Shown piece by piece: positions 3,517 to 35,383 of a stretch of DNA of 36,615 bases; the stretch's first letter is position 1; every line of letters begins with the position of its first letter. Source of the DNA: a virus (lineage: Duplodnaviria; Caudoviricetes); the IMG/VR virus record IMGVR_UViG_3300037808_000674, positions 1 to 36,615 of that record. One strand, 5' to 3'. A model generated the notes under the pieces. It saw nothing but the letters and a program-made list of their open reading frames with translations, did no database searches and had not been told where the DNA came from. The position numbers and the translations under genes are program-made.

Positions 3517-4421
3517 GGGTTAATGTCCACCGGGGTGATCGTCACGATTATTCCGTCGTCGTGCGTGAACCAACTGCCGACGTTGAATGTGGTGATTCCA
3601 GACATATTCTGGCAGTAGAGGCCCCAGTCGAGGCCAATCGTGTCACCGCTCGCGACGGAAACAATGCACGAGCCTGCAATCTCGGGACGCTCCAAGTGGA
3701 CGCCGAAAATGCTCAGATAGCCGTACCACGAGGAACTGACCACAGAACCCGGAACCACAACATGGCCGCTGCCCGTGTCCTTCGTCACTCGCACCTTGGT
3801 GTTCCAATGATTGTGAGTCGAATACCCCTGCGCGCTCAGTGCCCAGGACACCAGGAATTTCCGCGTGCCACCCGCCGGGAAATCCCCGCCATAGGTAAAC
3901 TCGCCGCTCGAGTGCGTCCAGTTGTTGGAGTCGCGCACCGTCCAGGTGGCGGGCGTGTACCAGTGGTCGGTATTGACCGCGAGCGTGTTGTAGGCCACCG
4001 AGCCCTGGGTGTAGTTGGCGTGAAGCCACGCACGGTCCAGGGGTGCGGCACCCACTGCCGTATCGACATACGATTTGTTGGCAGCGTCAGTGCCGGCCAC
4101 AGGCGTGGCAACGGTCAACGCGGTCCCGAACGTCCACGCCCCGGCCACTGTCTCCACCGCTGACTTGTCCAGCAGGTTCTGGTTCTGGATTCCGGCCAGG
4201 GTGCCGGTTACTGCGCTGAAATCGAGGTTGCCCACACTCGTCACGTCGAAGCCGTTGCAGTCCAGATCGCCCGAAAGCTCCGGCGTAATGTCGGTTATGA
4301 GCCGGTCGATCCCACTGCGCCATGCAATTCCGTGCGGGCTTGCCGTGTCCAGCACAAGCGCCTGCCCGTCCCGTCCGGCCGGGAACTGTTGGCGCGAGAC
4401 TTTGCCTCGGAGGGTGGGCAT
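3513..4421 (-). CDS. Tail fibre / receptor-binding protein 3
   Basis: DITPELSGDLD and TPVAGTDAANKSYVD fibre motifs; beta-rich C-terminal head. Start ATG 4421 overlaps the TAA of tailspike 1 (TAATG). Confidence 0.75.
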   Translation of the reverse strand: MPTLRGKVSRQQFPAGRDGQALVLDTASPHGIAWRSGIDRLITDITPELSGDLDCNGFDVTSVGNLDFSAVTGTLAGIQNQNLLDKSAVETVAGAWTFGTALTVATPVAGTDAANKSYVDTAVGAAPLDRAWLHANYTQGSVAYNTLAVNTDHWYTPATWTVRDSNNWTHSSGEFTYGGDFPAGGTRKFLVSWALSAQGYSTHNHWNTKVRVTKDTGSGHVVVPGSVVSSSWYGYLSIFGVHLERPEIAGSCIVSVASGDTIGLDWGLYCQNMSGITTFNVGSWFTHDDGIIVTITPVDINP

Positions 4422-4423
4422 TA
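4405..4423. repeat. Direct repeat flanking tailspike 1 (copy A)
   Basis: CCTCGGAGGGTGGGCATTA; 18/19 identical to 7439..7457. Confidence 0.85.
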
Positions 4424-7400
4424 TGCGATGTCGCTCCGGCTGATCTCGCTCCACTTGCCTGTCTCGATCATGGTCAGCGTAATCGTGTCCCCGGTGGTCA
4501 TCGCGAAGTTGCCAGCCAGTTCCAGGTCGCCACCGTCTGTTATCTGAAGGGAGTGCTTAGCCTTGACTGTGATCGTTTGGCCCACTTCGCCGTCATCGAA
4601 GTCGGTAATGGTGGTGGTCCCGCCCGTGGTGAATGCCGACCCCCCTGCCACCGTTGGCGTGCCCGTGTTATCCAGGGCGACCACCCCACCGTGGTCCGTG
4701 GTAATCGCCAAGGTCAGCGGCTTGTTATTGAAATCTATGTTGTTCCGCCTCCACGCCTCCGTGACGTTCGCCGTGTAAATCCCGTAAAACTGCTCGTGTG
4801 TCTGGGCTACGGCTGTGGTGGTCGATCCGCTATCTGCACCCGTGATTGTGTCCGGGGTGGCTGTGTCAAACGTGCCGCTTGCAGTCTCGAAAATGTTCAG
4901 GACTGTCGAAGTGATAACGCCCGTAACCTTGGCCGTTACTCCGCTCGCGCTGCCTGTAATCGTTTCGCCCAGAGTGAAACCCGCATTGCTGGCGACACTC
5001 AACCGCTGCGCGTCAGTCCCCACTTGGTTGTCAAAATAGTAGAGCCGCTTCACGTCATGGAACAGGGCACCTGCGTTGGTCAATGAGCTACTAGTAGACT
5101 GGACGTGGTTGTGCGTGAGGAGGTTGTCGGAACACTGAACGTCTTCGCACTGACCCCCAGCGGAGCCGCCCATCCACGCACCAGACAGGGCACACCTCTC
5201 TGCGGTATTCCCAGTGAAATGGATTTGGTCGCTCACCCCGTTAATGAAGAAACCGGCATACCCAGACCAGGCCACAGAGTTGTTTTTGCACTCCACGGAC
5301 TTCACCACATTGGTCCCGGTTTCGTTTATGTAGAGGCCACCCGCCCCTGTAGTCACGTTGTTGTTGTAAACCACCCGGTCCCAAATGTCCCCGGACAACC
5401 ACCGCACCGAAGCCATGCCGTGCTGGCCCGAGGTTTTCCCGTAGTCACCGTGCCGCAGTGTGGTGGTGAGTGTGTTCCCAGTGATTACCGCCGAGATCCC
5501 CTCGGTGCCGACATAGCCGCGCTGGTAGATAGAAAGCCAGGCGTGGGTGGAAACCCCAGCCGGAGCGTACCATTGGAAATTATTACCAGACACCACAATG
5601 GTGCCACCGCTCACTGTGTTGGCAGAGATCACATTGCCATTGCCGCCAATATCGACAAACGCGCCTCGGCTAGAAATCGTATCCGAGTGCTGTACCACGT
5701 TGTTCTGGATGCTCATGTGGCACCCCCTGAACTCAGCGCCGTAGATCGCTGGGATTGTTGTGCCTCCCGGCGACACGTCACCACGGATCAAGCAGTTGCG
5801 GATTGCAATGTGGTCGCCTCCGAAGTCTATTCCTCCGTCTATCGTGCAACCGTCGTATGTGATCCACTCAGAATTGCCGTGAATGTCCGCCGCCTGCACA
5901 CCGCCCGCGCCATTCGTGGAAACGTGCGCCCCCATGATCTTGTGGTATCGGTTGGGCACAGAGAACACTGTCGCGTTGCCAATGGTGATCCCGTGCCGCG
6001 CTGCGCTGAAGTAGCCGCCCACCACCGCGACATTGGTGCAACCCCCGATAGCTAGCCCGTAGTCACCAGAGTGGTCAGAACTAAAATCCTCTTCACAGAC
6101 GCAGCCGATTACTGAGGCGTTGAAACACCCGTCCAGGTAAATCTGTAGGTAGCTGGAGTTGTATGCGCGGACGTTCTCCACCATGCAGTCCACGCCAGCC
6201 GAGAGGGCTATCCCCTTTACGGTATGACCGGCAGCCGCGTCGGCCAGACCCTTGAAGGAAAAGTTGGATAGCCTCACCGTGTTGGGGTTGGCTAGCTTGT
6301 AGACCGCAACGTCGGCAATCAAATACGCCTGTGCGGTTGTGCCTTGTAACGTCACAACGCTGCCCGCAACGCTGGCGACACGCACAGACTCCCCGGCACG
6401 GTAGTACGTTCGGAAGCCAGACCATGACGAATCCGTGGGGTTGTAAATTTGGATAACGTCACCGGCAACCACGGAGGGAGCACTGGCGAACGTCAGTGTG
6501 CGGTCATTCCGCGAGACATTGGCCGCCAACGCAGGCAGAGCGGTGTACGAAGGGGCGGGGTACACGAGCATTCCCGTTGACCCAAACCCAGCCGTGTACG
6601 TTGCTGCGCTGCCGTCGATCAGCGTGGTCCCTATCCCACTCCCTCGGATACTGACGTTGGCACCCGGAGTCAGTTGCCCGGTGATCCTGTAAGTGCCAGC
6701 GGGCAGGACAACCTCGCCACCACCGAGTGCCGTCACCGCAGAGAAGGCGGCATTCAGCGCAGCCGTGTCATCGGCCACCCCGTCCCCGGTGGCTCCGTAA
6801 TCCTTCACGTTCTTGATCTCGCCCCAGCGGTCGGCCAGACTTCTCGACGTGATCCCACCCGAAGCAATCAGCCCGGTGGGTATCGTAAGGCCCGCGTTGT
6901 TAATCTCGGCATCCACATAGGTTTTTGTCGCTGCGTCCGTGGTTGCCGTCGGAGTGCCCAGGTTGCTGATCCTGTTGCCGTTGGCGTCATACTGCCCTGA
7001 GCCATCCGTGGATACTTCAGTCAACGGCAGCGCACGCTCTGCAATCTCGCGGGTCCGTGTGCCTTGCAGGGTGACGCGATCCAGCGCCTCCTCGTGGGAC
7101 TCTGCGGGAAACGTGCCTCCGCTGATATAATCCACCAGTTGCGTCATGGCGGGGTTGCCGTAAATAATCAGAGTCTCGCCGGTCTGCGGCTCACCATCCT
7201 CAATCAGAAACGTCACCGTGCCACCCGTGGCTGCACCCTCACCCGCCACCGAGTAGTCCGAGTCCAGGGTCTTGGTGGTGCTTACGCCCGTGGCATCCAC
7301 GCGGACCAGCACCACGAGGTCGGTGGGCGCGAGGAACCTGAACGGCACCGAGAAGGCAGTGACACCCGGTACGCCCAGTTCTCCGTCGCCATCGTAACTC

Positions 7401-7429
7401 ACCCGGTTCTGTGTGCTGGTTATTGTCAT
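4421..7429 (-). CDS. Tailspike 1 (T7 gp17-type N-terminal anchor + beta-helix depolymerase-like domain)
   Basis: MTITSTQNRVSYDGDG...FPAESHEEALDRVT anchor; NVKDYGATGDGVADDTAALNAA...LPAGTY pectate-lyase-3-like start; N/G/T-rich beta-helix repeats. Confidence 0.9.
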   Translation of the reverse strand: MTITSTQNRVSYDGDGELGVPGVTAFSVPFRFLAPTDLVVLVRVDATGVSTTKTLDSDYSVAGEGAATGGTVTFLIEDGEPQTGETLIIYGNPAMTQLVDYISGGTFPAESHEEALDRVTLQGTRTREIAERALPLTEVSTDGSGQYDANGNRISNLGTPTATTDAATKTYVDAEINNAGLTIPTGLIASGGITSRSLADRWGEIKNVKDYGATGDGVADDTAALNAAFSAVTALGGGEVVLPAGTYRITGQLTPGANVSIRGSGIGTTLIDGSAATYTAGFGSTGMLVYPAPSYTALPALAANVSRNDRTLTFASAPSVVAGDVIQIYNPTDSSWSGFRTYYRAGESVRVASVAGSVVTLQGTTAQAYLIADVAVYKLANPNTVRLSNFSFKGLADAAAGHTVKGIALSAGVDCMVENVRAYNSSYLQIYLDGCFNASVIGCVCEEDFSSDHSGDYGLAIGGCTNVAVVGGYFSAARHGITIGNATVFSVPNRYHKIMGAHVSTNGAGGVQAADIHGNSEWITYDGCTIDGGIDFGGDHIAIRNCLIRGDVSPGGTTIPAIYGAEFRGCHMSIQNNVVQHSDTISSRGAFVDIGGNGNVISANTVSGGTIVVSGNNFQWYAPAGVSTHAWLSIYQRGYVGTEGISAVITGNTLTTTLRHGDYGKTSGQHGMASVRWLSGDIWDRVVYNNNVTTGAGGLYINETGTNVVKSVECKNNSVAWSGYAGFFINGVSDQIHFTGNTAERCALSGAWMGGSAGGQCEDVQCSDNLLTHNHVQSTSSSLTNAGALFHDVKRLYYFDNQVGTDAQRLSVASNAGFTLGETITGSASGVTAKVTGVITSTVLNIFETASGTFDTATPDTITGADSGSTTTAVAQTHEQFYGIYTANVTEAWRRNNIDFNNKPLTLAITTDHGGVVALDNTGTPTVAGGSAFTTGGTTTITDFDDGEVGQTITVKAKHSLQITDGGDLELAGNFAMTTGDTITLTMIETGKWSEISRSDIA

Positions 7430-7468: not shown

Positions 7469-10453
7469 TCATAGCCGCGTCACAGTGAAACTCAACCGCC
7501 CGCCTTGCATCGTTGTGGACGTGCGCCTAACGATCAGAAGATTGGATGCGACATAAATGCGGATGTTGGCCGCAAAACTGGAATGGCTAAACCCGCTGCC
7601 CGAGATAGATATGTCCGTCTGGAGATCCTCGTGGTGCGCTTGCTCAATACTCCCACGGTCTGTAAACGTCAGCGTGGCGTTGGTCGCTGTCGCTGTCGCA
7701 GCCACGGAAAGGTTGAAAGTTCCCACGCCAATCGTTGCCACCGTGGCAGAGTCAGGGATGCCCGCCCCAGAAACTGCCATGCCCACGCGGAGGGCGGCAG
7801 TCGAGTCCATTGTCACGGTCACGGACGTGTTGGTGGTGTCACAAGTGGCGTCGGTGAACGAGTTCCCTGAGAAGTTCCCAGAAACCCTCACCCCTTGACT
7901 GAACGCGGCAGGCAGTTGTATGTAAAGGGCCGCATTGTCTGCTAGTTCATAGTCGTATTCCAGCACAGTCCAGTGGTCAGTACAGCGGACCATCGCGCCT
8001 GTATCATTGAGGTGCCTAAAGCCGATCCTGTAACTGCCATAGATCGGTGCGAAACTGGAGTAGATGCTAAAGTCGAAAACCTGCGCGGACAGTCCCGCAT
8101 TGTCCAGAACGAGCCATGCGTTTGAGATGGATCTGATCCCCCGGTATTCAAATTCGGAGTCCACCACCCGCACATTCGTTGACCCCGTAGAGTCAAACGG
8201 TCGCTCCGAAAACGGGGCACGCACCCGCTCAAGCGTCACGTCATCCATCTTGCCTATGTCGAGTGCGTAGTTATTGATCTCGTGCGACTGAGCGTGACCA
8301 CCCGACACATAGGCCCCATACCCGGCCCCATTGATCGGTGCAGGAGTGCCCGCCCGGTCGTAGAGTTCAAAGGTGTCTGCGGTCTTGTTCGTCACTGTGA
8401 AAAGCCCGGAATTAATCTCGGTCATGCCCACCACGCCAGTCACAAGCACAATGTGACCGTTATCGTGCCCGTGTCCTACTGCGGTGACCACCACGGGACT
8501 GGCCCGTGTCGCCGCTGTAATATCGGGACCAGAGGACAACGAGGACACTACGTTCCTCAGAGTCAGGCCAGTCACCGCTGGGTATGTGAAGGCACCGGGT
8601 CCAGCATAAAATATCAAAACAGAGGCCGATGTCGCGCTACCACCGAAGACGTTCACCAGGGACACGTTCTCGATCAGCACATCCCGGTGTGCCCCGAAAG
8701 TCTGGCTACTGATCTGGAAGCCTACAGAGGCTTCGCGTATGACCCCGTTCCTCATAATCACCGAATCATTGTGCCTTGATAGATCTACTGCGATATACCC
8801 GGAATCTATGCCCGTTCCCGTGTATAGAAATCCGTCCAGAACGTAGTCGCTCTGCCCATAGATCGAGTTACCGCTAAACCCAAGTCCAACCCCACCCCTC
8901 ATTTCGATATTGGAAAGCCTGCCGCCTGTCTTGGTTTCGCTAGTACCGACGGAGAACTTGAGTGTCGCGCCCGTTGAGCTTGGATAGTTATCGAAAACCC
9001 CAGACACACGGGTTTCGTTGTCCTGAAGGTAGAGCGACCTCTCGATAACGTAGTCGGTTCTTACATCCCGAATATCCAAACCAGATACGTGCTCTATGCT
9101 GGACAGAACTACGTCCTTGCCGTTATTGGCACTGCCGGTGTCCTTGTTTATCCAGTAAGCCTGCTGCGCCGCTGTGTTTGTGATTCTCAGCCGCTCCATG
9201 GTGCCGTGTGAAAACGAAGCCGCCGCCCCAGTACCGTCCAGCCAGAGCAGTGTCTCGACGTTGTAGCCCGTTATATTCGACTCGTAATGTCGGGAAATTC
9301 CTGCCGTCTTCGGGTAGATCACAATACCCAGACCCACACCCCACAATGTGACGTTCTCGATGTGGCAGTCATCAGTCTCTACCCGAAAACACCCCTTACT
9401 CCGCGCCTCGTTGGCATCGTCTGACCATGACGTGCTGTCTCCCTCGGTTGTCAGGGCTGTGTACGTCACGTTCTTTATGTAAACGCTGTCATGTATGCGG
9501 CTTCCCGCATCCGTGTACAGGGTCTTGCCAATAGTGCCCGCTGCGTTGGACTTGTTCCCCACCGTTACGAACTTCACGTCTTCCAGTCGAAACCGTGCAG
9601 CGCCAGCCTTGTCTAGCTGCGTGCCGTTTGGCAGCAGGACCGTCGCGCCATTCCCCAGGATGTTATTGAAGAACAGGGTAGCCCCGGCAGTTGTGAGTTT
9701 GTAAGTCTTCCCAGCCTCCAGGGCGACTGCGGTAGATGGATTGGCTGCCAGGAATGTTGCGAGGTTGTTGAACGTGGTGGTGTCATCCGTTGACCCATCA
9801 CCCACCGCAGCACCGAAGTCCTTGATGCTCGCAACATCCCCCCAGCGGTCGGCCAGAGTTCTGGACGTGACGCCGCCAGTAGCAATCAGCCCTGTGGGTG
9901 TGGTCAGTCCAGCGTTGTTAATCTCCGCATCCACATACGTCTTCGTTGTAGCGTCAGTGGTTGCAGTCGGAGCAGTAAGCCCGGTCACCTTGGTTGCAGT
10001 CAGGACACCCACAGAATCAATATCGTTGTTGTTGGCGTCGTAAGCACCCGAGCCATCCGTGTCGCTGTTACCGAGGCTGGGGGTGCGGGTGGCAATCTCG
10101 CGGGTTCTCTTCTGCTGGATCGTCAGGCGGTCCAGGGCCTCCTCGTGTGTCTCAGCCGGGAAGGTGCCGCCGCTTATGTAGTCCACCAACTGAGTCAGCG
10201 GCGGATCGTTATAAATCACCACCTTCTGCGTGGCGGGCGGGGCTGTGACGAACGTAACCGTGCCGCTGGCAAGCCCAGCACCCAGCACCGTGTAGTGCGT
10301 GTAGATCGTCTGCACAGCCTCCACGCCGGTCGCAATGGTCCGCAAGACCACCACGAGGTCGGTCTTGTCGAGGAACTTGTAGGGGACGGCAAACGGTAAA
10401 GTGGCCCCGTCGCCTGTGTACTCCACCCGCGTGGATTCTGTGGAGATTGTCAT
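7469..10453 (-). CDS. Tailspike 2 (T7 gp17-type anchor + beta-helix domain)
   Basis: N-terminal ~210 aa paralogous to tailspike 1; SIKDFGAAVGDGSTDDT beta-helix start; unrelated C-terminal part. Confidence 0.9.
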   Translation of the reverse strand: MTISTESTRVEYTGDGATLPFAVPYKFLDKTDLVVVLRTIATGVEAVQTIYTHYTVLGAGLASGTVTFVTAPPATQKVVIYNDPPLTQLVDYISGGTFPAETHEEALDRLTIQQKRTREIATRTPSLGNSDTDGSGAYDANNNDIDSVGVLTATKVTGLTAPTATTDATTKTYVDAEINNAGLTTPTGLIATGGVTSRTLADRWGDVASIKDFGAAVGDGSTDDTTTFNNLATFLAANPSTAVALEAGKTYKLTTAGATLFFNNILGNGATVLLPNGTQLDKAGAARFRLEDVKFVTVGNKSNAAGTIGKTLYTDAGSRIHDSVYIKNVTYTALTTEGDSTSWSDDANEARSKGCFRVETDDCHIENVTLWGVGLGIVIYPKTAGISRHYESNITGYNVETLLWLDGTGAAASFSHGTMERLRITNTAAQQAYWINKDTGSANNGKDVVLSSIEHVSGLDIRDVRTDYVIERSLYLQDNETRVSGVFDNYPSSTGATLKFSVGTSETKTGGRLSNIEMRGGVGLGFSGNSIYGQSDYVLDGFLYTGTGIDSGYIAVDLSRHNDSVIMRNGVIREASVGFQISSQTFGAHRDVLIENVSLVNVFGGSATSASVLIFYAGPGAFTYPAVTGLTLRNVVSSLSSGPDITAATRASPVVVTAVGHGHDNGHIVLVTGVVGMTEINSGLFTVTNKTADTFELYDRAGTPAPINGAGYGAYVSGGHAQSHEINNYALDIGKMDDVTLERVRAPFSERPFDSTGSTNVRVVDSEFEYRGIRSISNAWLVLDNAGLSAQVFDFSIYSSFAPIYGSYRIGFRHLNDTGAMVRCTDHWTVLEYDYELADNAALYIQLPAAFSQGVRVSGNFSGNSFTDATCDTTNTSVTVTMDSTAALRVGMAVSGAGIPDSATVATIGVGTFNLSVAATATATNATLTFTDRGSIEQAHHEDLQTDISISGSGFSHSSFAANIRIYVASNLLIVRRTSTTMQGGRLSFTVTRL

Positions 10454-13400
10454 GGGTTAACCCTCGCTTCAGTGGGTGCCTCTAGTTCTCTGGGGCCGGG
10501 CATGGCAGACATGGCTTCAAACTGATCCAGCCCTGCCCGGTAGAACATCAGCTTAAGGTTCTTAATCATTATATCCGCGTCCAGTCTCTCCTCTGGGGTC
10601 ATTCCAGGGATTGGCAGGTCATACACGGAACGCATCTGGGTCAGCATTTGGAGTGAACCGACTATCCCCGGCAACGCAATAGGAGCCCCGCTCACAGTGT
10701 ATGCGCTGCCTGCGTGCTTCTGCATGAGCTTCTGAGCCTCCAGCGGTCTGGCCTGCTTCATCAACATATTCACCGTGCGGTGAACCTGATCGTTTTCCTT
10801 TACCCGGTCCCAGAACTTGCGGGACAGTTCGCCTCCGCCAATCCGCACAGCAAAGGCACCGAGTCCAATCACATCGGACGGGGTATCGGCCATGCGGCCA
10901 GGGGGCTCTGGGATTATATCCATGTCTTCAAGCAGTCGAGAGGACTCGCGCAGTATTCTACTGCCTAGGCCACCCGTCAGAGCCCTAACTGTGTGGTCGA
11001 TAATCATCGGGGAAGCCACCGGGCTCCTCTCCAACGTGCCGATAATCGGCAGATCGACTTGGGAGGCACCCAGGGGCAGATCGGACAGGAACCCGCCAAT
11101 CAGTCGGCTGATGGAGTTAGTGCGCGGGGTCGCTTGGTACTCAGGCAGCACGCCCTCAAGGTGCGCTGGGATCACCGGGGCACCCGTGAACAAGCTGCGG
11201 TTAGCCCAAGTCTCCAACGCAGGAAGGGCGAACTGTCCAACGAATGGAACCGCAACAGACGCAAGGAGTGCCGTCATGTAATCATCAAATGCGTTCGGGT
11301 CTTCGTTGGCTATCCTATCCCACATACGTTGAGGCAACGCCTTGAAGATCATCCCATACCCGTAGCCCGCTGGTAATCTGTGCCAGATAGGCAGTGGGCG
11401 ACCGCTGCCATCCGGGGCTAGCAGGATATTCCCATCGTCATCCTCGGCGTAGGTGGGCCAGATGAAATACAAATCCCGCTGCCACTGAGGAATATGCTCA
11501 GAGGGCTTATATCGCCCCTCCTCCTCGTCCCAGTCGCTCCACCCATACTCCCCTTGGTTGGTTGCTTGGAGGGTGAGAGCCGGGACGGTCAGCAGTGCCG
11601 TCCCCCGCAGCATCGTCCGTGCGGGGTGGTCTTTCATCGTGCGGAGCATCTGTACGGTGCCTTCAAGTGAGGCATTCAAAAACGCAATCAGTTTATTGAC
11701 CGCCTGGGCACGGGAACCCATACGTCCGAAGTCCAGGGACACGTCCCTAGACCGCAGACCGGACTTCATAATGTCACCTTTGGATGCCTCGCGTGGCAGC
11801 ATTTCCTGGCCGAGTAGACGCGCCGCAATGTCTTCCCCTGTTTCCTTGGCGAGCCCAAGGGTTCCCTTCTCTGGATGTAGCGCCCTGCCGAACTCACCCA
11901 CCCGCGTCATCTGCTCAGACATTTGACTGAGAACGCGCAGACCTTCGATGGGGGATCGGATGACGTTCCGCATGGTTATATTCCCGCCACCCAGTACCCC
12001 CTCAACGTCGGAACCCTTGAACACCCGATCTAGCGCCACCAGTTCCGACTGTGCGCCACCACTCCGCATCCAATCCTGATACAGCCGGGTCTTACCCAGT
12101 ACAGCAGCCGCACCCCACAGCGTGTCCGCGAAAGCCTTGTACCCACTGTCGGACTGGATAAAGGACACAATCGAGTCCCTAAATGGGTTCGCCAGCATAA
12201 ACTCAGGCGAAAGAACTGCGCCCGCTCTCAGGGTTGTCGCAGGCACCGAGAGAATTTTCACCAGCATATTCATCTCTTCGTGGCTTGTTATCTGCAAGAC
12301 CTCCGCAATCTCGGGCGGCACCTCCCACACCTGACGCTCCCCGTCCTTGAAGCGCACGATCTGGTTCTGCCCTGGCAGGAGCGTGTCAGGCCGGAAGATG
12401 TCCAGCGTTTCCTGCTCAAGTGCTGCCCTCTGATCCTCGGTTAGCTTGTCCCCGTCCCTAAGTTTATTGGCGAGCTTCTTCATCTCGTCCGCACCCAGCC
12501 GCGTCTTCTTCATCCGGGGCTTCACTCGCGTGGCAAGGTCGCTTACCTCAATGCCTCCCTGCCCGGCAACCTTTTCGACGTGGTTGATGTAGGCATCCGA
12601 GATAGCATTGCGCTCTACTGCATGGAGTACCGAATGGGTGTTCTTGATGATGGACTCGATGGGGTCATGGATCTTCAACCCGCTGCCTTCCACGTTGATA
12701 CGGAAGAACGAGTTTCCAGAAGGGGCACCACCCGCAGCACCCTCTTCAAGCATCACCCGGAAGAAAGGCACATAGTTCTTATTCAGTTCTGTCATCATCT
12801 CATACGCTTCTGGCGTAATTAGTCCACCGTCCCGTGCATATTGCAGGACGTGATCCTGATACTCGTACAAATCTTTCGCAATCGGGGCGAGTTCCGGGCC
12901 AAACTCTTCCACTACGCGCCTCGCCTCGGCAATGGGTACGTCGCCCACTTCCTCAAGGATCGCAGCCATCTCCTCCTCGGAATGCTTCGCCTTGGCTCGC
13001 TCGTACAATTCCAGGCGTCTAGACGCGACCATGTACGATCTTATCCCGTCCAGGTTCTTGCGGACTGGCTTGAGGATTTGAACCAGCGGCCTCCCCACAC
13101 GCTCATAGGTGCCGAACTTGAAGGGGCTGAACTGTATAAAGTGGTCGGCTTTGCCTCGGGTTCCCTGGAACAAACGGGCTAGGGAATACTCGTTTTCAAT
13201 GGCTTCCCGCGTATCCTTGCCGCCTTCCATGTACTTGCCCAAGACGCGCAGCGGATAGTTGCCGTCCTTCCAGTGCGTATAAAACTGGGACAGACTCCAG
13301 CCACGCTTGGCAGGCTTTTCACCGACTGAGATATGACTCAGCACCACGTCCATAGCGTCCTTCCCGCCCTGTGACGGTTGACCGGACCCTGGCTCCACAG

Positions 13401-16400
13401 TCTCCCGCTGGAGTCTTTCGTCCAGGGCAGACAGTCTTCCGATCAAGTCCACACGCTTCTGCTCGCCCCGTGTCTCGGCCTCTAGTATGAGGGCACGCAC
13501 ATCGGCAATCTGCTCCGGCAGTGACTCCTCCTCAAAGGGGCGCGGGGGTTCTCGGCTAGGCACTTCCTCCACGGGTACGGTGGGCTCTGCCAGTGCTGTG
13601 GCTTCGGCGGGGGTGGGCTCTTCTCTCGCTACCTGCTCCGCTTCTTCCAGCCGCTTCTCAGCCTCTTCCAGCAGGTCACGCTTGCGCCCACCCTTTTCGG
13701 GCATGAGCCCAGCCTCGCGCAACTCTGCCACCTTCATGCGCTTGATAGCTTCGACTGCCTCGCGTGCCTGGGTGACTGCGGGGGCTTCGGCGCGGGGCTC
13801 CCAGCCAAACTCATAGAGCGAGTTTCCCTCGGTGTAGAGGTCGCCCGCTCGCACCGTCATCTCTTGAATCTCACCCTCGCCATATCTTGCAGCGTGGTCT
13901 TCGGCGTATTGACGGTCTGGAGTTACCCAGTCACCGCTACGGATTTCACCCCCTGTGCCCTCGGGCACGCCACGGTAAACGGTTACCTCTGCGTCTGGGT
14001 TGCCACGCACCTCTACCAGTAGCCGCTGAACAGCCTTATCCCTAGCAGCGTGTTCGCCTCCGCTTCCATAATATCGAGCGCCCTCGGGAGAATAAATATC
14101 ATCCGGGTACATCCGATCCATCTCGTGCATCGGCGCACCATGCTCTGCTCCTGGTGCTGTGTGCTGACCCCGGTAATCCAGTTCCGGCCCAGTGGTGGGG
14201 GCTTCGGCGCGGGGGGTGGGGGCTAGGTCGGCAGCAAAGGCGTGTCTCCCGGCATCGGTAACATCTTCCACTCGAATCGGAGTTCCGCGAACAACGCCGC
14301 CCGTTCCTGCCCCCCCTACAAGCGCACCACCAGTAGTCCCATCTGGCGATATGCGTAGGTATTCCGATGATGGGAAAACCTGCGATTTCCTGACGGTTAC
14401 GGCAAGTATCCTCGGTCCCATCCCCTCAATCGAAATCGGATCTGTGCCAACATAGATTCCACCGTCAGCCGCTTCTATGCCACGCCCCTGGCGTTGCGGC
14501 TCTGCTGTACCTCTGCCCACGATGTTCTCAGCGTTGGCTTCAGACGTTGCGTGGTATAGCGTAACCTCTGCGTCTTCTGGCAATGCGTCAAACGCCGCTG
14601 CCCGCTCTACTGGAGTGCCGTTCTTGGTAGACCAGGGAATATTCCCAGGGCTGGCTTCGGCGCGGGCGGCATCCCCGGACAGTTCTAGGTCGAGGTCTGG
14701 GGCGCGTTCAGAAGGCACCGGCTCTGTGGCGGGATTCATCTGTTCCCTGCCAAAGACAGCAAGCACGGGGCCGGTCTGGGGGTCATCGACATAGCGCAGC
14801 CCGTCATATCCCAACCGGCGCAACTGGGGAATAAGAATCTCAGACCACGCCTCCCCATAAGGGACTGGCTTGGTCATGTACCAGAAGTAGAAAGACCCCT
14901 CTTCCCTCGCGTGGTTAATAATCGCCTCTGCCCACGGGTCACCTTCTGCGTCTAATCCGGCAACTACCTGGGAATCTCGCGACATATCCAGAGGGTTCTT
15001 GACCTCGACCGTATAGGCAGCCACCGCGCCCTCGCCAGCCGTGGCGTATCCTTCTGCGACCGAGCGGTCAGTAGTCAGAGGTATCAACCCACCTCGCTGC
15101 TGTGTGTTGGTACTGTCGGCACGGAAATACGTTTCACCACCGGCCTCTGTGGCGCGTTCTAGCTCAATGGCAGGCTTCACCATCTCCTGGGCCTGTTTTT
15201 CGCTGGTTGCAAGCACACTGCGGTCACCCGCAAACAACGGAGGGCGCGGGCCAATCACACCCGCCTGCTCAAGCTCGCCCAGCAGAGCATCCGCATCCGC
15301 ACGGCCCAGGTCAGGCATTTCCTTCGTCAGCGTGGACGCCTTGGCCTCACCTCTGCCCGCCACGATCTCCGCAGCCCTTACCAGTCGCGGGTCTACACCC
15401 TCCACCTGAGCCTGGAGTGCCCTGGGAACCACGATATTGACCGAAGACAAGTCCTCGATAATCGTCGGATCTCTCCGTGCCGCCTCAACCACTTCCCTCG
15501 GGTTCAAGCCAGTGCGGACGTATATCCTGCGGAACTTCGCAGAGAGGCGAGCGTTCTCCCGCGCATTGGCCCTCTGCTGCATGACCCTGCCAGCACCTTG
15601 ACGGGTTGCCGTGACACCCTTGTGCCCAGCACGCAGGAGACCAATCGTAATGGCAGCCAGGGCGAAGTCCTTGGCCTCGGGAACCTCCCCGTGGACCGCA
15701 CCCCCAGCGCCCACCATCGCAACAACTTCCGAACCCGCTGCGGCAGCTTCCGTTATGCCCGCCGTACTCCCGCCCAACTTCCCAGGGATCGAGGCGGCCA
15801 TTCTCTCCAGTGGCTTGCCCAAACCCACGCGAGCCAGTTTCCCAGCCCCACCCGTGGCGGCACCTATCGTGGCCTCTTTGCCCGTTGCTATCACTGCATC
15901 CCACAGGCGCGGCCCGAAATCGTCCCAATTCTGCATCTGGCCCTTGCTATAGGAATCCATCAGCACCTGCCTGATACCACCGGGCAGAGCAAAAGCACCC
16001 GCCATGCCAGTGATCGGACCACCACCGGCAGTTCCACCCAAAATCATCAGCGGGAGGTCAGGCACAAGAACGCCAACCCCGTGGGCGAGTTCCAAGTGAA
16101 AGCCTGCGTCTTCGGCCAGAGCGGCATCTGGTAGGCCCTCATTCCAAAGAAGACCGGCCACACTGGAGTCCATCCCCAACCTAAGCGCATCCCATAGGGT
16201 GGGGTCTTGGAGTTCTGGCACCGACTGAATGGCTTGCTCCAGACCTGAAGCATTCACCAGACGCTCAAGGTCTGAATCATCTCGCTGCCTGTTCCCGTAG
16301 TGGATAGCTACCTCGTCCGGGGTGAACCCGGCACTGAGCAGCATCTGCATCTGGGTGCGCGTGTCCTCTTCGATTTCCGTATTGGAGAACCCAGCAGCAC

Positions 16401-16641
16401 GGAGCACCTGCACACGCTGGAAACCAGGGGCAGCAGGATCTGGCTCACCCGCAATCGCACGCACGGGTGGCGGCGCAGGGGGTAGAGTCTCTACGGGAGG
16501 CGGGGCGGGTAGAGGCTCCACGGGAGGCAGGGGTTCCTCCTCGGGAACCGGCGCAGGAGTGGGTTGCAACTCCTGGGGCTCCTCCTCCAGCACACCCTCG
16601 GCGGGCGGTTGGTAGGCCGGTGCTTCAAGCGGGGAAGCCAC
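10450..16641 (-). CDS. Giant internal virion/ejection protein (polyvalent: FtsK-gamma-like, three ART-fold modules, SAP-like, C-terminal LPD38-like)
   Basis: Position equivalent to T7 gp16; 2063 aa; C-terminal PALETWANRSLFTGAPVIP...SPMIIDHTVRALTGGLG resembles LPD38; internal ART-like motifs. Confidence 0.8.
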   Translation of the reverse strand: MASPLEAPAYQPPAEGVLEEEPQELQPTPAPVPEEEPLPPVEPLPAPPPVETLPPAPPPVRAIAGEPDPAAPGFQRVQVLRAAGFSNTEIEEDTRTQMQMLLSAGFTPDEVAIHYGNRQRDDSDLERLVNASGLEQAIQSVPELQDPTLWDALRLGMDSSVAGLLWNEGLPDAALAEDAGFHLELAHGVGVLVPDLPLMILGGTAGGGPITGMAGAFALPGGIRQVLMDSYSKGQMQNWDDFGPRLWDAVIATGKEATIGAATGGAGKLARVGLGKPLERMAASIPGKLGGSTAGITEAAAAGSEVVAMVGAGGAVHGEVPEAKDFALAAITIGLLRAGHKGVTATRQGAGRVMQQRANARENARLSAKFRRIYVRTGLNPREVVEAARRDPTIIEDLSSVNIVVPRALQAQVEGVDPRLVRAAEIVAGRGEAKASTLTKEMPDLGRADADALLGELEQAGVIGPRPPLFAGDRSVLATSEKQAQEMVKPAIELERATEAGGETYFRADSTNTQQRGGLIPLTTDRSVAEGYATAGEGAVAAYTVEVKNPLDMSRDSQVVAGLDAEGDPWAEAIINHAREEGSFYFWYMTKPVPYGEAWSEILIPQLRRLGYDGLRYVDDPQTGPVLAVFGREQMNPATEPVPSERAPDLDLELSGDAARAEASPGNIPWSTKNGTPVERAAAFDALPEDAEVTLYHATSEANAENIVGRGTAEPQRQGRGIEAADGGIYVGTDPISIEGMGPRILAVTVRKSQVFPSSEYLRISPDGTTGGALVGGAGTGGVVRGTPIRVEDVTDAGRHAFAADLAPTPRAEAPTTGPELDYRGQHTAPGAEHGAPMHEMDRMYPDDIYSPEGARYYGSGGEHAARDKAVQRLLVEVRGNPDAEVTVYRGVPEGTGGEIRSGDWVTPDRQYAEDHAARYGEGEIQEMTVRAGDLYTEGNSLYEFGWEPRAEAPAVTQAREAVEAIKRMKVAELREAGLMPEKGGRKRDLLEEAEKRLEEAEQVAREEPTPAEATALAEPTVPVEEVPSREPPRPFEEESLPEQIADVRALILEAETRGEQKRVDLIGRLSALDERLQRETVEPGSGQPSQGGKDAMDVVLSHISVGEKPAKRGWSLSQFYTHWKDGNYPLRVLGKYMEGGKDTREAIENEYSLARLFQGTRGKADHFIQFSPFKFGTYERVGRPLVQILKPVRKNLDGIRSYMVASRRLELYERAKAKHSEEEMAAILEEVGDVPIAEARRVVEEFGPELAPIAKDLYEYQDHVLQYARDGGLITPEAYEMMTELNKNYVPFFRVMLEEGAAGGAPSGNSFFRINVEGSGLKIHDPIESIIKNTHSVLHAVERNAISDAYINHVEKVAGQGGIEVSDLATRVKPRMKKTRLGADEMKKLANKLRDGDKLTEDQRAALEQETLDIFRPDTLLPGQNQIVRFKDGERQVWEVPPEIAEVLQITSHEEMNMLVKILSVPATTLRAGAVLSPEFMLANPFRDSIVSFIQSDSGYKAFADTLWGAAAVLGKTRLYQDWMRSGGAQSELVALDRVFKGSDVEGVLGGGNITMRNVIRSPIEGLRVLSQMSEQMTRVGEFGRALHPEKGTLGLAKETGEDIAARLLGQEMLPREASKGDIMKSGLRSRDVSLDFGRMGSRAQAVNKLIAFLNASLEGTVQMLRTMKDHPARTMLRGTALLTVPALTLQATNQGEYGWSDWDEEEGRYKPSEHIPQWQRDLYFIWPTYAEDDDGNILLAPDGSGRPLPIWHRLPAGYGYGMIFKALPQRMWDRIANEDPNAFDDYMTALLASVAVPFVGQFALPALETWANRSLFTGAPVIPAHLEGVLPEYQATPRTNSISRLIGGFLSDLPLGASQVDLPIIGTLERSPVASPMIIDHTVRALTGGLGSRILRESSRLLEDMDIIPEPPGRMADTPSDVIGLGAFAVRIGGGELSRKFWDRVKENDQVHRTVNMLMKQARPLEAQKLMQKHAGSAYTVSGAPIALPGIVGSLQMLTQMRSVYDLPIPGMTPEERLDADIMIKNLKLMFYRAGLDQFEAMSAMPGPRELEAPTEARVNP
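13600..14666 (-). repeat. In-frame direct repeats (CCCCGCGCCGAAGCCCCC family) delimiting internal domains
   Basis: Identical 18-mers at 13780-13797 and 14197-14214, a 14-bp core at 14653-14666, and a 10-bp partial at 13600-13609. Spacings 183, 417 and 453 bp are all multiples of 3. Confidence 0.85.
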
Positions 16642-23351: not shown

Positions 23352-24200
23352 TCAATCGTTTGCAACCTCTGGGTGCGCTAAAGCGTGCAATCGCGTCATC
23401 CGGGCCTTCGCTTCCGGGTTTCCACCCAGGTACTGGCCCATGAAATCCTTATCAAGCCCGAGGTCTGCAATCTTGGCCTTCGCCGCTGCGGGTGTCATCC
23501 CGAACTGCGTGCCTGCTCCGTTGTCCTCTCCGGGCATTCCCTTGTGCTCCCCCAACCCCCGGCCAATCTCAGCCGAGAGTTCCAGCAATCCCCGCAAACC
23601 CAGCGCACTCTCCAGTTTGTCCATCTTCGCGTCGTCGAGGCCGAACTTCTGCCGAAACCGGGTGCCCGCGGCAATGTTCTCCTCCCACGCCGCGCCCCAT
23701 TCCTTACGCAGAGCCGCCTCGTCGGCACTGGCCTGCTCCTGGCGCTGGGTCTCAAACTCCTGGGTGGCCTGCTCGATCCGCCCGTTGTATTTCTCGTAGA
23801 TGCTCTGGGCCTGGGCTTTCGAGAGCCCCGCCTCGTGTGCCCAGCTTGCGAGATCCGGGGTCAGGTCAATCCCACCCTCGGGCACCTCGGGGCCGCTGAG
23901 TTCGTACCCCGCAGCGTCCTCGGGTCTACCTAGCTTTGAGTACACCGCGCCCCATGCCTCTGCGTCCTCGGCATCCTTGGGCAGGGTCAGCACGCTCTCG
24001 CCGGGTGCGCCCATAGCCTTCTCGAGGTTTCGGTAGCTGTCGAGCATCTGATCGGGGCCACTCCAGCCCTTGTTCTCCACATACCCCTGAGCGTCCTCGG
24101 GCAGTCCCTCCGTCCAAGAAGGCGCTTCCACGGTGACGCTGGGCGTAGCTTCGGTTTCGTTTGTGGCGACCTCGGGGGCTGCCTCGACGGCTTCACTCAT
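23352..24200 (-). CDS. Capsid scaffolding protein
   Basis: Acidic N-terminus; SYRNLEK, YSKLGRPE, HEAGLSKAQAQ, LRKEWG motifs; lies between portal and capsid genes. Confidence 0.85.
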   Translation of the reverse strand: MSEAVEAAPEVATNETEATPSVTVEAPSWTEGLPEDAQGYVENKGWSGPDQMLDSYRNLEKAMGAPGESVLTLPKDAEDAEAWGAVYSKLGRPEDAAGYELSGPEVPEGGIDLTPDLASWAHEAGLSKAQAQSIYEKYNGRIEQATQEFETQRQEQASADEAALRKEWGAAWEENIAAGTRFRQKFGLDDAKMDKLESALGLRGLLELSAEIGRGLGEHKGMPGEDNGAGTQFGMTPAAAKAKIADLGLDKDFMGQYLGGNPEAKARMTRLHALAHPEVAND

Positions 24201-32079: not shown

Positions 32080-32456
32080 TCCCCCACCTCCTTTGCAATC
32101 TCCAGAACCGTCGCGCCCTCGCCCCGTGGCCCTCGGAGTTGCGGCCGTTCGTCCACCCTGCCCTGGATCTCGCGGACGGCGATCCGCCACCATCGCGGGG
32201 TCGCCCTCTCCTGGCCGGGAACGGTTTCGCCCGGTGCGATCAGCCGCGCCGCCTCCAGAATGTCCCCCGGCCCAGGCGGAAACCCCCCCTTCGTGAGCAG
32301 GCACGCGCGCTCGCACGCTGCCCGGAATATCTCGATCGGGATGCGCTTGGTCAGGTTGCCCTGAAGTCTCAGCGTTTCGTCACTGACTTCCTTGCCGAAC
32401 GCCGTCCAGTTGTCCTGCAAGCAGCCTAAGCGCAGCGCCTTTTCGTTGGTGTCCAC
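32076..32456 (-). CDS. Hypothetical protein, possible helicase-loader-like
   Basis: Follows the initiator; FPPGPGDILEAA resembles FxPxxxxI motifs of phage loader/inhibitor proteins; GTG with G-rich SD. Confidence 0.5.
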   Translation of the reverse strand: MDTNEKALRLGCLQDNWTAFGKEVSDETLRLQGNLTKRIPIEIFRAACERACLLTKGGFPPGPGDILEAARLIAPGETVPGQERATPRWWRIAVREIQGRVDERPQLRGPRGEGATVLEIAKEVGE

Positions 32457-33189
32457 GTTTCCCCCCCTCACTGGCCGCCAAAACGCGCTTGGCTACGTCA
32501 AACCTCTCTCGTGGCTGCGCTTCCGCCCGCTGGGAAGCGATAATGTCCCAGTGCTTCCGCAGCTTCGGCACGCTCTGGAGCACGCCCTGGCCGCACCCCG
32601 TCCCCCAGAAGTCGCTCTCCGTCAGAGCCCAGAGCAGAACCGACTCCACCACACTCGCCTCAATGCCGTCGAGGCGCAGTAGCCGGTCCATTTCGGTGAA
32701 CCACGCCTTGGGTGGCCGGGCCTGCTTGCGGCGCGAGATGCCATGCTCCTCCGCTGCCGAAGCCAAGGTGTCAGCGAAGAGGAGGGTCAGGCGCTCCGCG
32801 TCTGGACTCTCTTCTCTTTCTGTTTCTGTTTCTGTTTCTGTACTAGATAGAAGGACTCTCTCGAAATCGTCTCGAAATCGTCTCGAAATCGTCTCGGGTT
32901 TCTCGGAAGTGACCGTTTCCGCTGATGATTCAGTCTCCTCAGATCGTCTCGAAATCGTCTCGAAATCGTCTTGGGCGTTTTTCCACATCGCGAGCAGGCC
33001 AGTGACCCGCGCATGACCCATGCGGAACTCCTGCATATAGGTCTTGACGGGCTTGAGCCCACCCAGAAAGAAACTGTCCCCCTCAAAGCGCAGGAAGGCA
33101 TACAGAGCGTCCTTGTCACCTATGTTCGCGAGGTAGAGGGGATTCGCTACCCCGGTAAAGCCACGCTTAAAACGCTTCTCCTCGCTCAT
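32380..33189 (-). CDS. Phage replication initiator (lambda O-like organisation)
   Basis: Internal iterons and ETETETE linker; C-terminal MDRLLRLDG...LLWALTESDFW...SVPKLRKHWD; directly downstream of the Cro-like gene. Confidence 0.8.
   Translation of the reverse strand: MSEEKRFKRGFTGVANPLYLANIGDKDALYAFLRFEGDSFFLGGLKPVKTYMQEFRMGHARVTGLLAMWKNAQDDFETISRRSEETESSAETVTSEKPETISRRFRDDFERVLLSSTETETETEREESPDAERLTLLFADTLASAAEEHGISRRKQARPPKAWFTEMDRLLRLDGIEASVVESVLLWALTESDFWGTGCGQGVLQSVPKLRKHWDIIASQRAEAQPRERFDVAKRVLAASEGGKRGHQRKGAALRLLAGQLDGVRQGSQ
32817..32968. repeat. Iteron cluster / probable replication origin
   Basis: TCTCGAAATCG x3 (32859-32891) and x2 (32947-32968), next to (TTTCTG)4 at 32817-32840. 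Confidence 0.8.
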
Positions 33190-33413
33190 CGCTTGGCCCT
33201 GACGGCCTTGCGCCTTGGCGGCTCCCAATTGGCTATATCCGCCAGGGAGATCTCGCCTCCCGATGCTGTCACCACGCGCAGTGCGGACTTGAGGGATAGG
33301 CGGGAGTGGCCCATCACCACGCCGTTCAGTTGCTGCTTGGAAAGCCCCGCAATTGGGCTGAACGCGGCTTGAGTCATGCCGCGAGTTTTAAGGTACTCCA
33401 TTATCGGGTGCAT
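33186..33413 (-). CDS. Cro-like XRE helix-turn-helix regulator
   Basis: MEYLKTRGMTQAAFSPIAGLSKQQLNGVVMG...SGGEIS; first gene of the leftward arm. Confidence 0.8.
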   Translation of the reverse strand: MHPIMEYLKTRGMTQAAFSPIAGLSKQQLNGVVMGHSRLSLKSALRVVTASGGEISLADIANWEPPRRKAVRAKR

Positions 33414-33489: not shown

Positions 33490-33519
33490 GCGGCTGTACC
33501 CCAAACGAGGAGCAAACTG

Positions 33520-33714
33520 ATGACCATCACTTTCGAGACAGAAAACTACGGGCCGGTAGCGGTCACCCACGCGCCGGAAGAGGGAATCGACCCCAACGGG
33601 CGGGCGTTCTGGCGGATCTCCGGTTCCGGCTTGGTCGCTTGTTCCTTTGGCGATCTGCCGGTAGTGGTGGAGGGCCTCTGCGGCCCCATCACCGGCGAGG
33701 GGGTGATCCGATGA
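33520..33714 (+). CDS. Hypothetical early protein (64 aa)
   Basis: SD GAGGAG, ATG 33520; ATGA coupling to the next gene. Confidence 0.7.
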   Translation: MTITFETENYGPVAVTHAPEEGIDPNGRAFWRISGSGLVACSFGDLPVVVEGLCGPITGEGVIR

Positions 33715-33890
33715 GCGCAATCAAGCAGATCACCTTCAAGCCCGCCACTCCCGCCTTCCGCATCACCTGTTGCGAGTGTGGCGGCAAGGTTGGCGAAACC
33801 GACTGCGAGATCACTGCCACCTCGTTTCACCATTGCGAGCAGTGCCACAGCGAATACCTCGCGGAAGTTGCCGCACAAGGAGAAAACTGA
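33711..33890 (+). CDS. Small zinc-finger protein (59 aa)
   Basis: CECG...CEQC; coupled at both ends. Confidence 0.7.
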   Translation: MSAIKQITFKPATPAFRITCCECGGKVGETDCEITATSFHHCEQCHSEYLAEVAAQGEN

Positions 33891-34207
33891 TGCTTTCTGA
33901 AATCGCCACCGCGCCCCATGACGAAGAGCCCCTGGCTCTGGTGCAGGAACGTCTCGACGATCTCCGCGCTGAGTTCTACGTCCTGGCAATCAACTTCGAC
34001 CATGTGCGCGATCACCATCGGACGGGAGAGCAGATCTCCCCGGCGCATCCATGCATCTGTCCCAATTGCTCAAACAAAACGGACGCTCTGCTGTATTCGG
34101 AGCAAGATTGCGAGGCTGTTTTCTTCTGCGATGGATGCTTCGACTCCGCTCACGAAGATGAGATCCGCGAGAAGCTCACCGAAGAATTTGCGAGGGACTT
34201 TTCGTGA
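33890..34207 (+). CDS. Zinc-finger protein (105 aa)
   Basis: CPNC...CDGC; SD AAGGAG; TGATG coupling. Confidence 0.7.
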   Translation: MLSEIATAPHDEEPLALVQERLDDLRAEFYVLAINFDHVRDHHRTGEQISPAHPCICPNCSNKTDALLYSEQDCEAVFFCDGCFDSAHEDEIREKLTEEFARDFS

Positions 34208-34290
34208 TGCTTACAGCAACCGGCGAGTTCGCTGCCGCACTTCTAGTTTTCTGCGTGGGTCTTTTGACTTGCGCGTTTTGGCCACTCTGA
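34207..34290 (+). CDS. 27-aa hydrophobic membrane peptide (below the ORF-track cutoff)
   Basis: MLTATGEFAAALLVFCVGLLTCAFWPL; TGATG coupling; ends just before the SD of the next gene. Confidence 0.55.
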   Translation: MLTATGEFAAALLVFCVGLLTCAFWPL

Positions 34291-34301
34291 AGGAGAACTG
34301 A

Positions 34302-34652
34302 ATGTCTGAATTGACACGCATCGACGGCACGATAAACCACATCGGCGAAACTCAGGAGGTCGGCGCAAAGGGTTTCAAGAAACGGGAACTCTGGCTCTGC
34401 CTCGACGCGGAGGCTGAGCGCCCCCAGTTCATCTGCTTGGAGGCAACTTTCGAGATGGTCGACGTTCTCGATGGCTTCTCGGTCGGTGATGCAGTGGTGG
34501 CCCACTACACGCTGGGCGGCCGGATCTGGGACGGTGGTGCTGCGCCGCGTTGCTTCAACTCGCTCTCACTGAAAAAGCTCCAGACCCTCGCGGATCGCGA
34601 TGAGTTCGCTGCCGAGTCCGCGAGTGAAGACAACAACGATATGCCCTTCTAG
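34302..34652 (+). CDS. DUF3127-like single-stranded DNA-binding protein (OB-fold)
   Basis: GETQEVGAKGFKKREL...PQFI...GDAV...LGGRIW...FNSL; acidic tail ending DNNDMPF. Confidence 0.8.
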   Translation: MSELTRIDGTINHIGETQEVGAKGFKKRELWLCLDAEAERPQFICLEATFEMVDVLDGFSVGDAVVAHYTLGGRIWDGGAAPRCFNSLSLKKLQTLADRDEFAAESASEDNNDMPF

Positions 34653-34660
34653 GAGGCGAC

Positions 34661-35383
34661 ATGGCTGCCAAGAAAACAGACAAGACTCTCGATCCTCTGC
34701 GGCTCTGGTCGCAGGTGGAAACCACTGACCCGGCCCACACTCGCCACGTGAACCAGCGCGGCGGCTTCACGGCTATCGACGCGCAGTGGCAAGTCCTTCA
34801 GGCCACGCAAGCATTCGGTGGGCCGATGGGCGTGGGTTGGGGGTTCGACTGGACTCGCGAGGAGGGGCCTGCTGACCTCTTCATCATCCGGGGGAGGCTC
34901 TGGTTCACAGATCCTGCGACGGGGGTGGAGGGCGCAGTGGAGCAATACGGTGCCGCGTCATTCGGCCAGCGTGTGGATGCTGACGCGCCAAAGAAGGCGG
35001 TCACCGATGCATTCACCAAGTGCCTCAGTTTGCTGGGCTTCAGCGCGGACGTTTTCCTGGGCCGCTTCGATGACTCCAAGTATGTCGCGGAGCAAAACGA
35101 GAAGCACGGCAACGGCAAGCCGCCCCAACCTCCGGCCCCCAAGAAAGCCGCAGCCAAGCCCAACGGCAAGCTGACGAAAGAGGAACGCTCTCGGGTTTCC
35201 GCTGCCGCGATAGACCGGGCCATTGAACTCAAACTCAAGCCTTCGGAGGCGGCGACGATAGGCAGGGATTCGGTTAAAGCGATGGGCTTCGACCAGAGTT
35301 CTGAGATCCCGAGCGACAAGCTCAGTGTGCTGCTCAACGGAATCAAAAGCTGGAAGGCCGACAAGACCGAGGTGCCGTTCTAA
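34661..35383 (+). CDS. Rad52/Sak-like single-strand annealing protein
   Basis: TAIDAQWQ...FGGPMGVGWG...APKKAVTDAFTKCLSLLGFSADVFLG; lies between SSB and Gp157. Confidence 0.7.
   Translation: MAAKKTDKTLDPLRLWSQVETTDPAHTRHVNQRGGFTAIDAQWQVLQATQAFGGPMGVGWGFDWTREEGPADLFIIRGRLWFTDPATGVEGAVEQYGAASFGQRVDADAPKKAVTDAFTKCLSLLGFSADVFLGRFDDSKYVAEQNEKHGNGKPPQPPAPKKAAAKPNGKLTKEERSRVSAAAIDRAIELKLKPSEAATIGRDSVKAMGFDQSSEIPSDKLSVLLNGIKSWKADKTEVPF

Follow-up and report, generated by a model that had tools for sequence, protein, structure and literature searches.

Giant multi-domain proteins of phages that carry LPD38, ART-PolyVal, DNA methylase and PBECR domains have been described as polyvalent proteins (Iyer et al., 2017; PMC5512222). 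They raise the question of how such a protein can gain and lose unrelated domains without disruption of a likely essential virion gene; the main text of Iyer et al. (PMC5512222) describes repeated accretion and names no DNA mechanism. Here this question is addressed with IMG/VR virus record IMGVR_UViG_3300037808_000674 (Duplodnaviria; Caudoviricetes), of which the whole stretch of 36,615 nucleotides was analyzed (hereafter the window). It contains a giant polyvalent-type gene with four internal modules, and versions of one in-frame 21-nt site, CCCACCCCCCGCGCCGAAGCC, that encodes the peptide PTPRAEA. This site is conserved at the DNA level, is confined to the giant gene, and forms the edges of modules that are shared with other giant phage genes; alleles that lack a module were found as well. 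We consider it probable that the site is a short-homology adaptor common to these phages, and that their annealases use it to recombine genomes present in the same cell, so that whole domains can be gained, lost or exchanged without a shift of frame.

Repeats in the Giant Gene

All repeats that the original prediction had described around four internal domains of the gene were present, in one reading frame. Copies of the 14-mer CCCGCGCCGAAGCC are located at 14653-14666, 14200-14213 and 13783-13796, with spacings of 453 and 417 bp; an identical 18-mer occurs at 14197-14214 and 13780-13797, and a 10-mer copy at 13600-13609 follows at 183 bp. Exact codon-multiple spacings had been put forward as a feature of the array. 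They are real, but any repeats in the same frame of an open gene would show them, so they carry no separate evidence. All four copies, at 14653, 14200, 13780 and 13600, are versions of the 21-nt site, some of them eroded (Table 1). Loose ends of contigs show that relatives have a full site directly after the partial site at 14653-14666, the site head at 13797, and a fuller site with other upstream modules at the eroded copy (loose ends at 13613, runs X12 and X13).

The 18-mer is the longest repeat in the gene, and a repeat of 18 nt was reached in only 1 of 1000 synonymous-codon shuffles and in 1 of 1000 codon-order shuffles. Given the same hexapeptide PRAEAP, the probability of identical codons is 4.6e-4, and for identical RAEA codons in three copies it is 5.9e-5. 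Module 1 is edged differently. Its 10-bp repeat, CGCCACAGAG, can be extended to a match of 16 out of 17 letters with one indel, as had been predicted. The two 10-mers of the array alone are within chance inside this gene, which has more than 30 other 10-mer repeats; their support comes from outside data (see below). The module 1 repeat is a separate microhomology and not the main site, and a backbone stub stands between modules 1 and 2, the peptide of which is found again in L190 and L172 with different codons. The earlier description of modules enclosed by repeats is thus correct for the presence of the copies, and needs to be amended for module 1 and the stub.

The Site in Other Phage Genes

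The site was found in 19 giant polyvalent-type genes with open reading frames (ORFs) of 641-3120 codons. A search for the 18-mer beside other domains had been suggested together with the original prediction and was successful: the 18-mer matched ten viral stretches, and in five cases the match was in frame in a large gene that had a second copy; the shifted 18-mer CCACCCCCCGCGCCGAAG was in frame in giant ORFs in all eight viral-contig stretches that it matched. Matches of further scans were filtered for chance by ORF length and content. A 15-mer scan of 36 of 64 parts gave 119 stretches that were mostly chance matches, with L044, L052, L075, L108, L115, L120 and L142 as real ones. From a metagenome scan with a 19-mer 15 of 57 loci were kept, the remainder being short-ORF or ordinary-gene matches, and from a scan with an AA variant 6 of 14. 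L058 and L086 were rejected as site carriers, since the matched letters belong to the methylase FFPTP motif. Scanning 185,579 prokaryote genomes yielded 16 matches and no sign of a chromosomal cassette store; one match looks real and belongs to a phage contig binned in a metagenome-assembled genome of Acidobacteria. The label of this bin is a hint of the host, no proof.

In all five carrier genomes that were analyzed the 14-nt core, with one mismatch allowed, occurs only inside the giant gene (eight matches), and a reversed control gave none. Four capsid families are represented among the carriers (SU10_MCP, Phage_capsid_4 and GP7, with Phage_capsid_2 in the window). The early genes that the window has in common with carrier genomes G001 and G002 are 68-94% identical at the DNA level, which fits a common host. 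The site genes include LPD38 relatives (L022, L162 and L168) as well as methylase-, PBECR5- and NUDIX-bearing giants that are not LPD38 relatives. Identical arrays were present in separately assembled records (L011, L013 and L014; L167 and L169). The distant backbone relatives L001-L007 (25-35% identity) have no such site, and L001-L004 are without the module region. Cultured phages gave no DNA match to the backbone and no cultured carrier is known; Tunturi_5, the best match of a 37-nt query, is out of frame (PAPKPP) and was taken as chance.

Two further loci deserve mention. A 1897-bp contig of run X14 has module 2 with another site about 477 bp upstream and represents a further array. L149:2-7261 (-) contains two sites and a GRKLS[VF]-type peptide that is repeated at several other joints, which could be a junction tag at the protein level.

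Module Borders and Module-Less Alleles

Module 2 is 99.4% identical over 465 nt between the window and L191. The identity starts inside one site and stops inside the next, and the two genes have no other DNA block in common. Downstream of a site, L020 and L021 are nearly identical over 5.5 kb; upstream of it they are unrelated. The blocks shared by L020/L172, L021/L194, L172/L190 and L209/L216, as well as module 4 (L022, L179 and the window), are also edged at sites. Altogether, the shared blocks have 39 internal ends, 28 of which are at most 10 nt from a site (1.6 expected; the ends are not independent). Counted by hand, 10 of 17 distinct ends are at sites, and nine of ten distinct blocks have at least one such end. 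The domain content of relatives varies, and the breakpoints concentrate on the repeats.

Alleles without module 1 occur in seawater contigs from two studies. A contig of run X13 joins 14721 to 15145 and skips exactly 423 bp, with ten repeat letters in common, and a contig of run X19, from a different study, skips the same 423 bp; neither run covers the interior of module 1. The short sides of these joints measure 69 and 85 letters. Of the deletion junctions proposed earlier, the 423-bp one was recovered. The joints 13797 to 14205 (X12) and 13613 to 14200 (X10) are no proof of precise deletions of 417 and 600 bp, as their short sides have only 21 and 25 letters, and neither is an X13 loose end matching 14215-14227, with only 13 letters. 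These two joints and the loose end show a full site with other neighbors. Among the contig joints listed, no circular or duplicated module joint was found. Two contig surveys showed other modules before or after the four main sites in 14 of 20 and 8 of 16 listed loose ends; contigs from any site-bearing phage yield loose ends at sites by construction.

Conservation as DNA

The 19 genes have a GC content of 48-65% and contain 34 TPRA peptides, all of which are coded ACC CCC CGC GCC (0.0067 expected for each). As 19 of these peptides were needed to find the genes, 15 are free observations, 14 of them distinct. Other PRA peptides had the canonical codons in only two of eight cases. Apart from one variant, GCC to GCT in an X13 loose end, the core was invariant, while the last three residues of the site vary freely (AEA, AAE, AAG, AAP and AEE). 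A scan for PTPRAEA with scrambled codons, which covered non-ACC threonine and CGN arginine (with AGA and AGG outside) in 62 of 64 parts, gave 119 stretches, 39 of them with short flanks only. The longest ORF had 741 codons, and the nine ORFs of at least 190 codons contained no second TPRA, had no resemblance to the 19 genes and included no giant gene. The site is therefore conserved as DNA and not merely as a peptide. This agrees with the earlier claims that synonymous positions are identical between copies and that the repeat exists at the DNA level. Together with the variable domain content and the breakpoints at repeats, it is the opposite of the outcomes that had been named as refuting the original prediction.

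Modules and Predicted Cargo

The modules of the window are listed in Table 1 together with the site copies. Modules 1-3 all probably have the ADP-ribosyltransferase (ART) fold, although they cannot be aligned, and are predicted cargo on the weak fold evidence that follows. Module 1 matches ART-PolyVal of Pfam with an E-value of 3e-5 and 25.1 bits, below the curated cut-off of 31.2. For module 2, look-alikes in the Atlas include PARP, Tox-ART and Arr clusters at 0.89-0.91, which is a lead only; its DNA identity is 94% to L162, 81% to L204 and 75% to L208, next to the near-identical copy in L191. The structure model of module 3 has a pLDDT of 80, and ART-fold chains top both fold searches weakly (E >= 0.15; Z <= 4.2), as Foldseek gave no match at E <= 0.001 and VIA-align no Z above 4.2; other proteins contain homologs of it (36-55%) but no site. 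Module 4 matched no family in searches of Pfam and PHROGs. The best pairwise BLASTP match between domains of the window has an E-value of 0.03. The domains are hence dissimilar in sequence, as had been noted before, but modules 1-3 probably share one fold. In total, 17 site-bounded modules were found, of which at least 13 are different; Pfam gave nothing for most of them. Elsewhere the site borders a C5 DNA methylase, a ParB-like module and unnamed non-ART modules. In the backbone relative P0004, an ART-PolyVal module at residues ~495-745 lies between copies of a different peptide repeat, AAEAAPPAT, which may be a second junction private to this module.

Table 1. Site copies, modules and related genes in the window.
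Feature	Position	Strand	Remarks
Giant polyvalent-type gene	10450-16641	-	2063 aa, LPD38 near the C-terminus
Left copy of 10-bp repeat CGCCACAGAG (module 1)	15145-15154	-	Separate from the main site, resemblance at most loose
Module 1, ART-PolyVal-like	14732-15144	-	Absent from some relatives
Right copy of 10-bp repeat CGCCACAGAG	14722-14731	-	423 bp from the left copy
Backbone stub PVPSERAPDLDLELSGDA	14667-14721	-	55 bp between modules 1 and 2; retained in alleles without module 1
Partial site, last 14 nt of the 21-mer	14653-14666	-	Left edge of module 2
Module 2, predicted ART-like	14221-14652	-	Common to at least four other genes
Full 21-nt site CCCACCCCCCGCGCCGAAGCC (PTPRAEA)	14200-14220	-	
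Module 3, predicted ART-like	13798-14196	-	phrog_2579, E 3e-28
Site without CCCACC head; 18-mer identical to 14197-14214	13780-13797	-	Left edge of module 4
Module 4, ~55 aa	13618-13779	-	Common to L022 and L179, there too starting at the site
Eroded site, one codon short	13600-13617	-	The 10-mer copy is 13600-13609
Candidate single-strand annealase (Rad52-like)	34661-35383	+	Between the SSB gene and the Gam/Gp157 gene

Proposed Exchange of Modules and Alternative Explanations

If the site serves homologous exchange, phages that share a host would meet in one cell, where an annealase of the Sak, Rad52 or RecT type would pair two sites over 16-30 identical bases. If the two sites were not equivalent, a crossover would delete or add a module; two crossovers would replace one. 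The product would stay open because all sites are in the same frame and encode a harmless Pro/Ala linker. New domains could enter by chance microhomology beside or inside the site or, as module 1 may have done, at an unrelated 10-bp match, and they would become exchangeable once flanked by the site. A mutated copy would lose access to the common pool, and exchange would rewrite it, which could keep the site uniform. The cargo would be carried in the virion and injected early.

Unrelated sites have up to 30 identical bases, around the 23-27 bp quoted as a minimum for Red-beta (PMC3945230), and the ends of identity are spread between 10 nt ahead of the site and 7 nt past it. Module 1 was gained or lost at an unrelated 10-mer, which points to homology and not to a sequence that is read. 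The candidate annealase of the window has language-model features (Atlas) at 0.95 to Rad52_Rad22 clusters. Its C-terminal tail and gene slot are as in the Sak protein of G001 and its N-terminal domain is different; PHROGs labels it an exonuclease. Sak annealases are encoded by G001, G002 and G004, and G003 has a weak match to RecT; the genome of G005 is 67% complete. A plug-in system that works through short homologies, as proposed in the original prediction, is thus supported by the block ends at sites and by the alleles that lack module 1 precisely at its repeat.

Several results weigh against this proposal. The 19 genes were gathered by a search for the site, so their number gives no frequency among polyvalent genes. 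The other 11 of the 39 block ends lie away from sites, as do 6 of 20 and 8 of 16 of the loose ends listed in the two surveys. L020 and L172 diverge from L190 after just 5-8 letters of the site, and the copy of module 2 in L162 has no full site at its right end. Unequal crossing-over is expected to leave tandem duplicates of whole modules, and none was seen among the 17 site-bounded modules. Many site pairs have just 13-21 identical bases, under the minimum of 23-27 bp quoted for Red-beta (PMC3945230), and the candidate annealase has no match to Rad52_Rad22 of Pfam. Moreover, TPRA is absent from five close backbone relatives (P0003-P0006 and P0031), whose inserts in this region are different; one of the five, P0003, is 92% identical in the backbone and rejoins that of the window at EATALAEPT. 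Similarly, 18 homologs of module 3 (36-55%) have no site at their flanks. Because relatives vary without it, the site seems to be one route, used by one gene pool; the suggestion that the repeat explains the modularity of polyvalent proteins in general does not hold.

Lastly, the near-invariant core fits a sequence-reading enzyme equally well, and a single fixed crossover point, somewhere in site positions 8-17, would suffice for every full-site swap. Such an enzyme, a recombinase or nicking enzyme from a shared host or from a subset of phages, would make the gene an integron-like array with cassettes fused in frame, an in-gene integron that assembles polyproteins from a community-wide cassette pool, possibly via small circles. 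We regard this as a possible but unlikely explanation. It would account for the near-invariance of the core in 34 contexts, although the site was defined with the core included, and for one sequence across four capsid families that is confined to the giant gene. However, no shared recombinase gene was found. An integrase was found in one of the five fetched carrier genomes (G003, ~25 kb from the array), the window genome, 97% complete, has no PF00589 match and no integrase, and none was found in four fragments. Folding of 50 nt of DNA around the site gave no stem within it (-3.3 and -4.8 kcal/mol), and the site contains no hairpin or palindrome. Module 1 is present or absent with breakpoints at a different 10-mer, half-sites and eroded sites mark edges too, and the prokaryote genome scan revealed no chromosomal store of cassettes.

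The site could instead be a passenger, a stub copied during illegitimate recombination in a flexible linker, with a uniformity that results from recent spread and not from use in crossover. Stubs beyond the site that are common to unrelated modules, hexamer slips (CCCACC repeats) at some joints and the relatives that vary without the site agree with this. Yet the core is identical beside diverged modules (module 2 in L204 and L208, with 75-81% DNA identity) and in genes of 48-52% GC, and identity between genes ends within a few bases of the site, which makes this explanation rather improbable. Selection of PTPRAEA as a peptide, for instance as a protease cutting or packaging signal with DNA identity as a by-product, seems very unlikely. 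A gene at 23352-24200 of the window is protease-like, Iyer et al. (PMC5512222) proposed that peptidases release domains, and L149 has its repeated peptide at other joints, but such selection would leave the codons free. All 34 codon sets are identical, no giant gene has a scrambled-codon copy (AGA and AGG being outside the scan), the last three residues are not fixed, and the peptide DLELSGDAxRAEA has other codons in the two genes, L190 and L172, in which it does not form a site. A secondary role of the site as a protease cut site could still exist. Finally, we give hardly any credence to the ideas that the array arose when a single ART domain and its linker were long ago duplicated in tandem, or that it is an assembly error. 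Modules 1-3 probably share a fold, as a duplication would predict, but the domains are unalignable next to identical linkers and non-ART modules (C5 DNA methylase, ParB-like and others) are flanked by the same site elsewhere. Identical arrays in separate assemblies, and the 423-bp joint in two studies without cover inside module 1, argue against misassembly.

Relation to Known Systems

An integron is an array of exchangeable units from a common pool, with a recurring site between the units, a tyrosine recombinase gene and a palindromic, hairpin-forming cassette site. The giant gene resembles it in its exchangeable units, common pool and recurring site, but there is no integrase beside the array, the site is no imperfect palindrome, and the units are fused into one protein. 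It also differs from a polyprotein with protease-site linkers, in which codon choice would be free.

A close likeness is that to domain movement within a gene (DoMo), described for the S genes of type I and IIG restriction-modification systems of Helicobacter pylori, in which in-frame domains between short direct DNA repeats (14-53 bp) move, drop out or change locus, with recombination proposed as the cause (Furuta et al., 2011; PMC3077401). Flanking repeats at the DNA level, and the same domain in other genes (module 2 in L191, L162, L204 and L208; module 4 in L022 and L179), were found here as well. With respect to the loss and duplication alleles of DoMo, an allele without module 1 was observed, and no duplicate of a whole module among the 17 that are site-bounded. 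In DoMo, as described by Furuta et al., homologous target-recognition domains of a single bacterial species are each set between a repeat x and a repeat y. In the giant genes, the same site is on both sides, the cargo is non-homologous, and the arrays are open-ended and occur in unrelated genes of phages with different capsids. Boundary sequences of mosaic phages are short, occur in different phages, and have been put forward as places of homologous crossover between their modules; they are located between genes and are said to be missing at most boundaries (PMC3029335). The preference of block ends for the junction is similar, but the present site lies inside the frame and joins domains, with all eight core matches in giant ORFs. 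The site thus works like DoMo and boundary sequences but belongs to neither. For polyvalent proteins, Iyer et al. (PMC5512222) considered possible recombinational variability of kinase loci by analogy with polymorphic toxins; their main text names no DNA junction sequence and contains neither 'linker' nor 'shuffl'. Searches limited to open-access literature gave no account of such a site in polyvalent genes, in line with the earlier statement that the repeat architecture is not known to have been described; subscription papers or the supplements of Iyer et al. could hold one.

One 21-base sequence that marks exchange points across capsid families implies that viruses without a relationship adhere to the same 'plug standard' and take their putative anti-host domains from a single pool. 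The site further gives exact borders for uncharacterized cargo, and could serve to tag, at the DNA level, phages with a probable common host.

The Phage Genome

The window represents a 36.6-kb phage genome with a CheckV completeness of 97%. Positions 1-206 and 36410-36615 form a terminal redundancy at a spacing of 36,409 bp with a few mismatches, which indicates a whole or nearly whole genome. The runs that best hold this phage come from seawater or other marine metagenomes. The minus strand carries the genes for terminase, portal, capsid, tail and internal virion proteins; on it, the giant gene follows an internal-virion-protein gene and a gene for a 549-aa protein and precedes two tail-fiber genes. 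Judged from this gene order, its product is likely a large ejection protein. LPD38 spans residues 1716-1901 (Pfam, E 2e-25). The protein is polyvalent in that it is large and combines disparate domains, the four internal modules, with an LPD domain, and in that its gene is located among the virion genes of a terminase-portal phage. The two paralogous tail-fiber or tailspike genes, at 4421-7429 and 7469-10453, still have DNA repeats of 12-18 nt in common in their N-terminal parts. The early recombination genes at 33505-35869 have 68-87% DNA identity to those of G001 and G002, which belong to another capsid family. Within the DnaD-like replication gene (32380-33228), tandem 11-mers (TCTCGAAATCG) and 6-mers at 32817-32971 are likely origin iterons.

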